A stretch of 64,000 bases of DNA from a virus (IMGVR_UViG_3300035698_010625:32001-96000); one strand, 5' to 3'. Counted from the first letter of the stretch, positions 18,877-32,503 are shown. A program made the numbers and translations. Notes: generated by a model from the sequence alone, not told the origin.

Positions 18877-18951
18877 GTGGCCGTGGCCGAATGGTTTAGG
18901 TGCCTGACTGTGAATCAGATTATATGGGTTCAATTCCCATCGGTCACCCCA
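18877..18951 (+). tRNA. tRNA-His(GTG)
   Basis: cloverleaf, CT-GTG-AA loop, C73 plus CCA. Confidence 0.92.
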
Positions 18952-21027: not shown

Positions 21028-21098
21028 TATTGATAGTGTAATGGATGCACACTGGGGTTTAAACCTGGAAGTACGGTTCGATTCCGTGATTAATAACT
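21028..21098 (+). pseudogene. tRNA-like gene with TTA in the anticodon position
   Basis: AT-rich acceptor, CTGGG-GT-TTA-AA-CCTGG, GGTTCGATTCC T arm, no CCA. Confidence 0.5.
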
Positions 21099-26877: not shown

Positions 26878-27702
26878 ATGATTACGCGAAACAAATTGGC
26901 TGTTGCTATTCTTGCTGCAGTTTCCATTACTACCGCAGCACACGCATCTGAAGTTACTACAATCACCGCTGGCTCCAAGGGCGGTGCATACGCTACTTAT
27001 GGCAACAATCTTGCAACTATGCTCACCCAGAATGATTGGAAGAGTAAGGTTATTCGCAGTAAGGGTTCAATTCAGAATATTGCCCGTCTTGTAGATGGCT
27101 CAGCACAAATTGGTTTCACCCAGGGCGATGCTTTGCAGCTCTCAAAGGCTGGTGGTAAGATTGATATTCTTGGAGCACTTGGAATGGAATGTGCTTTCAT
27201 TGTTTACAGTAAGAAGGGTAAGGTCACTGACGAAGATCATCTTCAGAATGAGGGTGTGAAAATTGCTGTTGGTAAGAAAGGTACTGGTTCACAAGCAACG
27301 TGGTCTTACATGGTTCAGCTAGAACCTGCATACGGTAATGCATCTGCACAGTATACTGGCGGAGCTCGCGCACTTGGCGCACTCAAAGCAGGCACTGTTG
27401 ACGCTGTTCTCTTTGTCACCGATCCCACTAATCTGAGTCATAAGCTTATTCAAGCAGTAAATGGTGATCCAGACCTCGATTTTCTAGACGTTGATGACAG
27501 TGACTTGAATGATGATCTACCTAATGGCACGCCTGTCTATGAATTCAAAGAAGTTGACACTGAAACGGGTGCTTTCGCGGATGACGTAGATACTATCTGT
27601 ACGCCTTTGCTAGTAATTGCTAGTGCAGATGCTGACGAAGACATGCTTGATGATGCTGCAGGAATTATGCTAAGCAATCGCAATGCGGTGCTTGGTAAGT
27701 AA
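26878..27702 (+). CDS. TAXI-family TRAP transporter solute-binding protein-like, secreted
   Basis: signal peptide (AHA-S), TAGSKGGAY, SKGSIQNI, IGFTQGD, VGKKGTGS. Confidence 0.8.
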   Translation: MITRNKLAVAILAAVSITTAAHASEVTTITAGSKGGAYATYGNNLATMLTQNDWKSKVIRSKGSIQNIARLVDGSAQIGFTQGDALQLSKAGGKIDILGALGMECAFIVYSKKGKVTDEDHLQNEGVKIAVGKKGTGSQATWSYMVQLEPAYGNASAQYTGGARALGALKAGTVDAVLFVTDPTNLSHKLIQAVNGDPDLDFLDVDDSDLNDDLPNGTPVYEFKEVDTETGAFADDVDTICTPLLVIASADADEDMLDDAAGIMLSNRNAVLGK

Positions 27703-27725
27703 CAATGCAAAAGATAGTCGTTCCC

Positions 27726-27925
27726 AAGTTAGTACTTAATCGCTCTACGGAGAGGAAAGTCGGGACAAGCGGCATGATCGTGTGGGAGGAGTTAACTCCG
27801 CTTTACCACCGTGACATAGCTTGCAACACAAACAGGATTAGACAAATTGTGCATCAATGATATCCGGGTTGTGGCCAATAGACGAATGATAGCATAGAAC
27901 AGGATCCCGCTTACGGATTACTTAC
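27726..27925 (+). ncRNA. rnpB: minimal RNase P RNA (catalytic domain, S-domain largely absent)
   Basis: CR-I GAGGAAAGTCGGG (27752), CR-V ACAGGATCCCGCTTA (27899), P4 AAG[T]CGGG/CCCGCTT, TAGACGAATGA (27879), P5 CAAGC/GCTTG, P15 CACAA/TTGTG with GGT. Confidence 0.85.
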
Positions 27926-28212
27926 TACTTACAAGGAGCAAATGATGAGCAAGGTATACCCTCACTCAAGCACTAAGCAACGCGAACGATACGTGAAACA
28001 AAACGCTATTAAAGGCGAACGCTCTATCGGGCAAACTGATGCTTCAGTAGGCTGGTATGGACTTACAGTAAATTGGAAAGCTATTGTGCGTGGTGCACCG
28101 TGTTACATTACAACTAACTAAAAGGAGCAAGATATGCGCTTGATGAATTTAGAGCACCTCCTTAAATTGTGATTTTTGGTAAAACACTAATTCACACTTA
28201 AGGAAACATCTA

Positions 28213-29459: not shown

Positions 29460-30348
29460 ATAATCTGAACACAAACTAATAGATTGGGTCGCGTGGGATC
29501 CATAAGATAAGTAGCAGTAATGTTACGAAAGGCTATCTCATTTACGGATAGCGCCACTTTTATGAAGGTGGACATCTACGCAAGCCAAGCTCTTTACGGG
29601 TACCTCCGGGTGCTCTGGAAGATAAGTTGTGACCGACAAACACATCCAGGCCAACGGTGAGGATGATAGATTCCGCAAGAATCTCGGGTCAAGCAAAAGC
29701 AACGAACTTCAATGAGCAAAGGGTAGATTGAAAAGTTAAGCTTGCAGGTAAGGCTTTCAATCAATACGATAGGTGAAAGAAGATACAGCCTTCTGGAATC
29801 TAGAAATATTGCTAAGTAGCTCGCAAGGCGAAAGGTACGAGGTGGGTGGTATTTGGTAACTCAAAGGTTATTGAGCCACAGGCATTCGCTCATCTTAAAA
29901 TGTAAATATGTAAACGGAATAGGGGAATAGGTACACCCGCCCGGCCGCCAAAGCCAGGATCTGTTGGTTCGAATCCAACTTTCGTTATCAACTTTGTATT
30001 GATAACAAATCTTAAATGCAAAGACGAATGCCACCGTGAAGTGGAAATTGCTTAATCCTCAAACCCATAGGGTAATTGAGGTTCAGGATGCTCGCAAGGC
30101 GGATTGAATTAGTTGGAGTCACAGGTAAATTCTTAGCGGAGTTACACAGCCCAGCAAGGCTGACCGGTCGATGAATGCTGAAAAGCTCGCGGATAGAGGA
30201 ATCGCTACCTCTTTAAACAAAGCAGCAATGGTTGATTACTATGCCGCTCTTCGGAGGGTAAAGTGGAAAAGAGAAGAACCTAGCGGATCGCACCGTGTGG
30301 ATAATTTCTCGAAGGATCAACTGCATATGAGTATATTCTCAACTCATC
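29460..30348 (+). ncRNA. GOLLD-like giant structured RNA with embedded tRNA-like element
   Basis: ~890 nt with no credible ORF, many GCAA/GAAA/TTCG-capped hairpins, located in a tRNA array, terminal hairpin ATGAGT-ATATTCTCA-ACTCAT, tRNA-like insert at 29913-29990. Confidence 0.7.
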
Positions 30349-31831: not shown

Positions 31832-32055
31832 ATGAAGTATTATGTAGATTCTATGAGACATTTGGTATGTGTGCCTTACAGTATATCTAATCTACATAAA
31901 TGGCAGAAGTGTTAGAAATTAATCGTTGTTGGTTTCACAAAAATCATTACGACGTACCTAAAAGAAGAATCAAAGAAATCCAAGCAAAAGCTACATTAGT
32001 ATCTCCTCGAATTATTTTGAAGATTACTAAAGGTGAAGGATATGAACACCCTTGA
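31832..32055 (+). CDS. DUF4031-like protein, frameshifted in the A-run at 31898-31900
   Basis: HLVCVPYSISNLH then, in another frame, MAEVLEINRCWFHKNHYDVP. Confidence 0.55.
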
Positions 32056-32503
32056 CTCTTTTTCTAACTGCATGCCTATTACGAACTTTGGAGACGAAGA
32101 CACTCGTTTTCTCAGTAACTTTTGGATGCCAGTAATAGGGCTTGAAGGTCCTTCGGTAGAACACGTGTACGCCGCTGCTAAAGCGGTTTCAGAACTTGAC
32201 CGTGAAGCAATTCTCGCTTGCCAAACTCCTGGTCAAGCTAAGCGCCTTGGGTCCAAGGTTCAAAAAATCAAGTGCTGGGATGACATTAAACTAAACGTTA
32301 TGTTCTCTGCACTTCTGATAAAATTCAACTTTAAGAAAAATCCGGAACTTGCTAGACAGTTGCTTCTAACTAAGGATCGTGACATAATAGAAGGAAACAC
32401 CTGGGGAGACACTTTCTGGGGGACTTGCAACGGTAAAGGTGAGAACCATTTAGGAAAACAGTTAATGGAAATAAGATCCCTATTAACTCGTTGTGATATA
32501 TAG
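32033..32503 (+). CDS. NADAR (YbiA-like) family protein
   Basis: FLSNFW, SVEHVYAAAK, AKRLG, KF, EGNTWGDTFWG, GENHLGKQLM. Confidence 0.92.
   Translation: MKDMNTLDSFSNCMPITNFGDEDTRFLSNFWMPVIGLEGPSVEHVYAAAKAVSELDREAILACQTPGQAKRLGSKVQKIKCWDDIKLNVMFSALLIKFNFKKNPELARQLLLTKDRDIIEGNTWGDTFWGTCNGKGENHLGKQLMEIRSLLTRCDI

Follow-up and report, generated by a model that had tools for sequence, protein, structure and literature searches.

The stretch of DNA analysed here (the window) comprises 64,000 nucleotides and corresponds to G000:C1:32001-96000 of an IMG/VR virus record of 105.6 kb that is estimated to be 59% complete. The family B DNA polymerase of this record shares 42% identity with gp43 of T4-like cyanomyoviruses, implying that the carrier is a distant T4-like phage. 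Between positions 18877 and 31268 the window holds a tRNA island in which ARAGORN identifies 29 tRNAs, all on the + strand, together with a GOLLD RNA. Even with about three more tRNAs from Rfam, this falls short of the roughly 40 tRNA-like transcripts given in the original prediction for this DNA. CCA is encoded in 24 of the 29 tRNAs, and 24 of the 29 have U at -1. The GOLLD RNA (29839-30345, + strand; 151.6 bits, just over the Rfam cut-off) carries a tRNA-Trp (29913-29987) in its linker. One tRNA-like gene, at 21028-21097, would, with its anticodon UUA, read the stop codon UAA; it is called 'tRNA-Stop' by ARAGORN, scores 30 bits with Rfam and has no CCA. An ORF with a NADAR domain (32033-32503) lies just past the island, and outside the window, at G000:C1:4786-5124, the same record has a gene for a CCA-adding-family nucleotidyltransferase (PF01743, 96.8 bits).

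Inside this island, with the nearest tRNAs 1259 nt upstream and about 2 kb downstream and the GOLLD RNA 1.9 kb downstream, is a small RNA gene that runs on the + strand from the 5' strand of helix P1 to its 3' strand (27728..27925), as delimited by the match to Rfam model RF00010 and by a family covariance model, R1. The gene sits between an NMT1_3-like ORF of 274 aa upstream and two small ORFs, and fills the gap from a stop codon at 27700-27702 to an AAGGAG ribosome-binding site at 27933-27938. This gap had been described as free of ORFs; a 51-aa ORF can be read mechanically at 27705-27860, but no frame is kept open across the relatives. Apart from the NMT1_3-like ORF the neighbouring ORFs have no Pfam match, and no candidate RNA-binding partner adjoins the gene. 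No sigma-70-like promoter is present directly upstream and no terminator follows, so that the RNA would have to be cut from a longer transcript.

The leaders of the window's tRNAs tend to the sequence AAcAAU at -6 to -1, and [AT]ACAAT ends exactly at -1 of 10 tRNAs. The heptamer TAACAAT also overlaps the stop codon upstream of the RNA gene (27700-27706), 21 nt before P1, where it could act as a signal for processing. In other carrier phages the leaders share no more than a general preference for A(-2)U(-1), and in some of these phages hardly any CCA is encoded. A pairing between the leader ACAAU and the AUUGU of loop L17 was considered and set aside: five nucleotides are within chance, the L17 segment is used by the P6 pseudoknot, and the motif is not shared by other carriers.

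In a global alignment, positions 1-367 of RF00010, the Rfam model for bacterial class A RNase P RNA, are matched by 27728-27929 on the + strand. The match has a score of 38.3 bits and an E-value of 1.4e-10 when the 451 nt from 27600 to 28050 are searched at permissive thresholds, and an E-value of 7.6e-12 when the whole viral record is searched. The original prediction, that the phage carries a genuine RNase P RNA homolog which an RNase P model should recognise, is borne out by this match and by the covariation of the family. About 170 model positions, most of them in the specificity domain (S-domain) and P18, are deleted, which explains why the score lies far below the 100 bits of the RF00010 gathering threshold; the remaining positions align well. 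With Rfam's curated thresholds the window yields 28 tRNA matches and the GOLLD RNA, and RNase P RNA is not reported. RF00010 is the best model of the RNase P clan for this sequence by cmscan, in which only the top model of a clan is reported. The family model R1 matches 27734-27914 with 123.8 bits, the window copy being one of its seed sequences. Simpler comparisons gave little: a blastn search of the region against the INPHARED phages returned no match at E 1e-5 and short seeds only at E 10, no relatives were found through the upstream 274-aa ORF, so that synteny of protein neighbours was unusable, and in single-sequence folding the window copy reaches a minimum free energy that does not improve on shuffled sequence (z +0.79). 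From the sequence, we conclude that 27728-27925 (+) is a miniaturised RNase P RNA, a conserved homolog derived from the bacterial type A form.

All the motifs quoted in the original prediction, GAGGAAAGTCGGG at 27752-27764, ACAGGATCCCGCTTA at 27899-27913 and TAGACGAATGA at 27879-89, stand where they had been placed on the + strand, and the helices P3, P4, P5 and P16 had been read correctly from them. In the Rfam alignment, P1 is formed by GUUAGUA (27728..27734) and UACUUAC (27919-27925), with six Watson-Crick pairs and one U.U mismatch, and is homologous to a clean P1, UUAGUAAC/GUUACUAA, in the relative L029. P2 pairs AUCG (27739..27742) with UGAU (27887-27890); numbered by their last two coordinate digits, its three Watson-Crick pairs are A39-U90, U40-A89 and C41-G88, joined by a G.U pair, G42.U87, that is conserved in the family. 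A P2 helix therefore exists as proposed, but the version first drawn (AATCGC with GAATGAT) is longer than the conserved helix, which ends after four pairs at an A.A mismatch. The P3 mini-hairpin CUC-UACG-GAG follows (27743..27752), its closing C-G pair invariant in all 65 family members. The conserved regions CR-I, GAGGAAAGUCGGG (27752..27764), and CR-V, ACAGGAUCCCGCUUA (27899..27913), form the pseudoknot P4 (GAGGAAAGUCCGG with ACAGAAnCCGGCUUA), in which 27757-27764 and 27906-27912 make seven pairs around a bulged U at 27760. P5 pairs CAAGC (27766..27770) with GCUUG (27819-27823), and double changes are seen in the family for all four of its modelled pairs. A second pseudoknot, P6, joins GCAUGAU (27772..27778) to AUUGUGC (27846-27852) in the loop of P17, again by seven pairs.

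The 3' half of the catalytic core is equally well marked. J5/15 contributes the CAA at 27824..27826, part of a GCAA that is invariant or nearly so in two MAFFT alignments, A1 and A2; it is the counterpart of A248/A249 of E. coli, which contact the residue at -1 of the tRNA leader. The P15-P16-P17 arm (27827..27873) contains P15 (CAC/GUG, 27827-29 with 27871-73), P16 (GGAU/AUCC, 27835-38 with 27862-65) and P17 (UAGA/UCAA with one mismatch, 27839-42 with 27854-57); all three helices covary, every modelled pair showing double changes. P15 had been predicted as CACAA/TTGTG. The CAC/GUG part is conserved, but the AA/UU extension would bury part of the GGU loop of L15, the 3' side of which is GGGUU (27866..27870), aligned to the GGGUa of RF00010. 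In type A enzymes this GGU binds the 3' RCCA end of the pre-tRNA. An AUUG/CAAU hairpin that was implicit in the original reading is not a conserved fold; in its place the family has P17, whose loop pairs as P6. The CR-IV (J18/2) element, UAGACGAAU, occupies 27879..27887 and is conserved in the family as AG..AAUG. Between P15 and CR-IV lie only five nucleotides, GCCAA, and P18, the helix whose GNRA loop docks on P8, is absent, as had been predicted.

The specificity domain (P7-P14, with CR-II and CR-III) is likewise absent save for a stub, about 140 RF00010 positions being deleted there. The predicted size of about 200 nt, without P8-P14 and P18, is thus confirmed by the Rfam alignment and by the window sequence itself. 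The figure of only about 50 nt inside P5 also holds, 48 nt being counted, but the organisation of this segment had been overlooked. It contains a P7-like stem, GUGG/CCAC (27782-85 with 27806-09), whose pairs covary and which encloses the whole remnant (27782..27809). The stub interior (27786..27805) consists of a 5' GA (27786-87), a hairpin GGAG-UUAA-CUCC (27788-99) and a 3' loop GCUUUA (27800-05).

Relatives were collected with a P4-anchored pattern, GAGGAAAGTCNGG-gap-ACAGNANCCNGCTTA, with 24 fixed bases and a gap of 85-175 nt, for which the chance expectation is estimated at about 0.02 per collection scan. In a full-length bacterial RNase P gene the corresponding gap is about 300 nt. Matches were obtained on 25 viral and 59 metagenome contigs and amount to about 74 distinct short forms. 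Some ten matches are ordinary bacterial genes shortened by N-masking or assembly gaps, or very GC-rich outliers, and these (for example L009, L012, L024, L025, L027, L031, L049 and L058) were left out of the seed and final alignments. RNAalifold applied to 39 sequences recovered P2, P5, P15, P16 and P17, with compensatory changes in 18 of 22 pairs. The covariance model R1 built for the family has 177 positions and 28 pairs, and its E-values are rough; 65 matches were realigned with it (alignment A4). In this alignment, which is fitted to R1 and so favours the R1 helices, P4 and P6 lying outside the model, 97.1% of cells pair, compared with 72.5% for shuffled sequences and 30-44% for slid partners, and double changes occur in 29 of 35 pairs, pseudoknot P4 included. 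P2 is 97% paired across the family, with double changes in six of its seven pairs.

The two pseudoknots provide evidence that R1 does not impose. P4 is 99.8% paired on A4 though it is outside the model. Its variable pair, both positions of which are free in the search pattern, is A-U in 32, C-G in 23 and G-C in 18 of the 74 distinct matches, with a single mismatch; the original prediction had read the window's P4 as a compensatory swap that homologs should show to covary, and three pair forms are indeed found. The conservation of CR-I and CR-V, on the other hand, is partly imposed, as most members were collected with a pattern that fixes both motifs. For P6, the MAFFT alignments A1 and A2 are out of register in the P6/P7 region for the window's subgroup, and this helix was therefore tested sequence by sequence with a permutation test rather than by column counts: across 34 distinct classes the true partners form 5.8 bp, compared with 3.8 +/- 0.18 for swapped partners, and none of 1000 permutations was as high. 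Compensated versions such as UGUUAGU/ACUAACA and UAAGAGA/UCUCUUA are found in relatives. The J5/15 CAA, the L15 GGU and the AG..AAUG of CR-IV are all conserved although they lie outside the search pattern. No conserved reading frame was found across the members, a frame being open over most of the length in only 18%. The pattern of change points to a family that, as a whole, is clearly under selection, which excludes a fresh capture from the host.

The family extends well beyond the window. A signature, CGUGAYAnAG, that follows the stub is common to the window copy, L016, L021, L029, L052 and a member from the cultured Stenotrophomonas phage vB_SmaS-DLP_6 (DLP6, KU682439.2). The DLP6 member (L088:3813-4036, about 105,784-106,007 of KU682439.2; R1 68.2 bits) and one from LR756511.1, a 595-kb uncultured phage (L086:2855-3048; R1 102.7 bits), were found from BLAST seeds, without the pattern. 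Both are unannotated, and they share a compensated P4 variant, GAGGAAGUUCGNCG with CGNCGGCUAC; the DLP6 member occupies a gap inside a tRNA array, 19 nt upstream of a tRNA-Arg. Such linkage is general, with a tRNA within 2 kb of 47 of the 65 copies and within 100 nt of 34, and with 304 of the 306 tRNAs inside the 2-kb limit on the same strand as the RNA. In two metagenome contigs a second copy stands in tandem directly upstream of the main one (L060:721-866 and L039:1-127).

Among prokaryote genomes of 185,579 species the pattern matches only 16 contigs, mostly from metagenome-assembled genomes (MAGs). The isolate Achromobacter anxifer LMG 26857 carries a mini form on a 487-kb contig (L102:6086-6284), within an array of 32 tRNAs spanning 8 kb, and its genome also has a normal 405-nt rnpB (202 bits). 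Several Gemmataceae MAGs carry mini forms, and in two of them a full-length gene was not found. A 0.9-Mb MAG of Candidatus Shapirobacteria (CPR) has as its sole RF00010 match a 212-nt form (L095:2058-2244; 88.9 bits), with no tRNAs nearby, a possible case of natural reduction in a cellular RNase P RNA.

The family can be defined as a catalytic domain (C-domain) of type A, about 130-230 nt long, in which P6 is kept, P18 is absent and the S-domain is either absent or reduced to a P7-like stub, and the window copy fits this definition. It belongs to the main size class, which has the stub. A conserved module, in which P6 and a P7-like stem of 4 bp are combined with a 5' GA, a hairpin and a 3' loop of 6-7 nt, is present in 48 of the 65 members. 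Of these 48, 35 carry the 5' GA, and in 39 members the 3' loop measures 7 nt. Where a 3' loop exists (47 rows), its first residue is G in 41 and its last is A in every case. Longer forms have extra hairpins at the P18 position, or larger remnants. At the other extreme, a class of about 150 nt, represented by marine IMG/VR contigs of up to 328 kb (L064-L070), has no S-domain remnant at all, and its P5 is closed by a loop of 8-9 nt that pairs with L17 to form P6. At that size it would, as far as we know, be smaller than any other RNase P RNA of bacterial type.

How do these RNAs compare with systems already described? The bacterial class A RNAs (RF00010), such as the 377-nt M1 RNA of E. coli (rnpB) and that of T. 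maritima, have a type A catalytic domain that is matched element for element, with P1-P5, the bulged U of P4, J5/15, P15 with the GGU of L15, P16, P17, P6, CR-I, CR-IV and CR-V in common. The phage RNA differs from them in having about half the size, in missing P8-P14 with CR-II and CR-III as well as P18, and in a P3 of only 3 bp; it is also virus-encoded and near tRNA genes, with no rnpA found in the same genome. An engineered E. coli C-domain ribozyme, Eco CP RPR (PMC5839562), is likewise a type A catalytic domain without an S-domain; it depends on a P6-like pairing, which the phage family keeps, and is little affected by loss of P18, which the family lacks. The phage RNA, known here from sequence, is in contrast natural and evolutionarily conserved, and has the stub of P7-like stem, loop and hairpin. 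The archaeal type T RNA (PMC13462272) is also a natural RNA of about 200 nt that keeps P6, lacks P18 and has an S-domain reduced to a single loop-interrupted stem, which has been modelled as one T-loop. Type T RNA, however, is cellular and essential, and its core is of archaeal type, with Pop5, Rpp30, Rpp29 and L7Ae as protein partners, whereas the phage RNA is of bacterial type A in sequence, with RF00010 as its best clan match, suggesting that the likeness is probably convergent and does not reflect shared descent. Finally, the Theta (HDV-like) ribozymes (PMC10879173) are likewise encoded by phages in physical linkage with tRNA genes, and a role in maturing these tRNAs has been proposed, but they are small, self-cleaving RNAs that act in cis on 3' trailers, whereas the mini RNase P RNA is a homolog of the trans-acting enzyme of 5' processing.

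The comparison with type T RNA bears on what the stub may do. Because it resembles the single stem with one T-loop of that RNA, complete loss of elbow reading should not be assumed, and by this analogy the stub may still read the tRNA elbow. Its conservation weakens the original suggestion that T-loop reading is lost and that non-canonical tRNAs are processed in consequence.

The homology and covariation, and the placing of the family next to tRNA genes on the same strand, lead us to propose as the probable function that the mini RNase P RNA acts in trans as a phage ribozyme, using the host RnpA protein to cleave the 5' leaders of phage pre-tRNAs. It would be transcribed together with the tRNA island and would assemble with host RnpA; no RnpA gene (PF00825) was detected in the 59%-complete record of the window or in 12 other carrier phage records, among them four with a completeness of 90% or more and the complete genome of DLP6. 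The assembled enzyme would cleave the leaders of the phage's own pre-tRNAs, with the L15 GGU holding the encoded 3' CCA and J5/15 holding U(-1), and the outcome would be extra 5'-maturation capacity for the phage's approximately 30 tRNAs. The encoding of CCA in most of the window's tRNAs matches the retained GGU. We infer transcription, catalysis, protein partner and substrates alike.

Biochemistry of the E. coli enzyme is consistent with such an activity. On its own, the C-domain of the E. coli RNA retains cleavage at about 1% of the wild-type rate, and the C5 protein stimulates it about 190-fold (PMC5839562). This domain needs a P6-like pairing, whereas P18 matters little, its loss having no effect without C5 and lowering activity modestly in the presence of C5 (PMC5839562); the phage family, which keeps P6 and drops P18, agrees with these results. 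The selective benefit is harder to see. When T4 infects E. coli, the rnpB RNA of the host remains stable and T4 itself depends on it (PMC9697503), so that the need for a phage copy is not obvious.

This last point lends some weight to a different role, in which the RNA would be a non-catalytic decoy or sponge for host RnpA or for pre-tRNA 3' ends, diverting or throttling host RNase P or timing tRNA maturation. If host rnpB persists, extra catalytic capacity may be unneeded (PMC9697503); the regions that bind RnpA (P2/P3, CR-IV and CR-V) are kept, while a phage rnpA was not found in the records searched, and what is missing is what makes catalysis on tRNA more efficient (PMC5839562). Selection nevertheless also maintains elements important for chemistry and substrate placement rather than for binding protein, namely the P6 pseudoknot, the bulged U of P4, the adenosines of J5/15 and the GGU of L15, and a same-strand position next to tRNA genes fits a processing enzyme. 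We regard the decoy role as unlikely.

An active ribozyme might instead have main substrates other than ordinary tRNAs, such as the tRNA-Trp within the GOLLD RNA, aberrant cloverleafs or cut sites in polycistronic transcripts. The GOLLD RNA with its internal tRNA is close by on the same strand, several tRNA-like genes in the island are odd or low-scoring, the leader motif TAACAAT recurs before the mini RNase P RNA itself, and the biochemistry of the C-domain suggests that a reduced S-domain should loosen the requirement for a tRNA elbow (inference from PMC5839562). Many members, however, lie in ordinary tRNA arrays with no GOLLD RNA in the fetched locus, and the conserved stub may still read the elbow (PMC13462272). 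This alternative seems to us just as improbable as the decoy.

Could the window copy be a decaying relic, whether of a phage gene that was once functional or of a piece of host rnpB that had been captured? Its P1 and P2 are weak, as the U.U mismatch and the four remaining pairs attest, and a competing pairing of UAAUC (27737-41) with GAUUA (27916-20), extended by AGUA/UACU, is better by about 7 kcal/mol in a nested nearest-neighbour model that ignores pseudoknots. Its R1 score is about 20 bits under those of three of its four nearest relatives and the lowest in the subgroup, and it is flanked by ORFs, more than a kilobase from any tRNA. Against decay, the core is intact (P3, P4, P5, the 7-bp P6, the stub, P15, P16, CR-I, CR-IV, CR-V, the GGU and J5/15), the R1 score is still well over 100 bits at 123.8, the gene exactly fills its intergenic gap, and selection on the family rules out a fresh host capture. 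A relic is thus slightly less probable still than the two alternatives above. A chance resemblance or a protein-coding stretch, to which the mechanical 51-aa ORF and the unremarkable minimum-free-energy fold might point, is already refuted by RF00010 E-values of about 1e-10 to 1e-12, by covariation in 65 homologs and by the scarcity of members with an open frame.

The reading of the RNA as a tRNA-processing ribozyme can be extended from the window to the family, although with the chances here evenly balanced. On this broader proposal, large phages and the tRNA-array elements of some bacteria would encode a working RNase P ribozyme, the smallest natural one of bacterial type, that takes over host RnpA and reads tRNAs through a single-loop stub or, in the 150-nt class, does not read them at all, giving the phage its own tRNA 5' maturation with altered substrate rules.

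RNase P RNA is, to our knowledge, regarded as a universal cellular ribozyme, and we know of no virus reported to carry it. No account of an RNase P RNA encoded by a virus turned up in full-text literature searches, and phages go unmentioned in recent reviews and papers on reduced RNase P. Standard annotation misses these mini genes because their scores fall far below the Rfam threshold. A conserved viral form of 150-230 nt would amount to a natural experiment in the minimal bacterial ribozyme, with P6 kept and P18 and the S-domain dropped, just as mutagenesis of the E. coli C-domain predicted, and the presence of a member in the cultured phage DLP6 makes genetics and biochemistry directly feasible. 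If the proposed function is correct, a 5'-end step would be added to the tRNA-supply kits of phages, alongside tRNAs, CCA-adding enzyme and repair enzymes, raising the question of whether phages reprogram the RnpA of their hosts.
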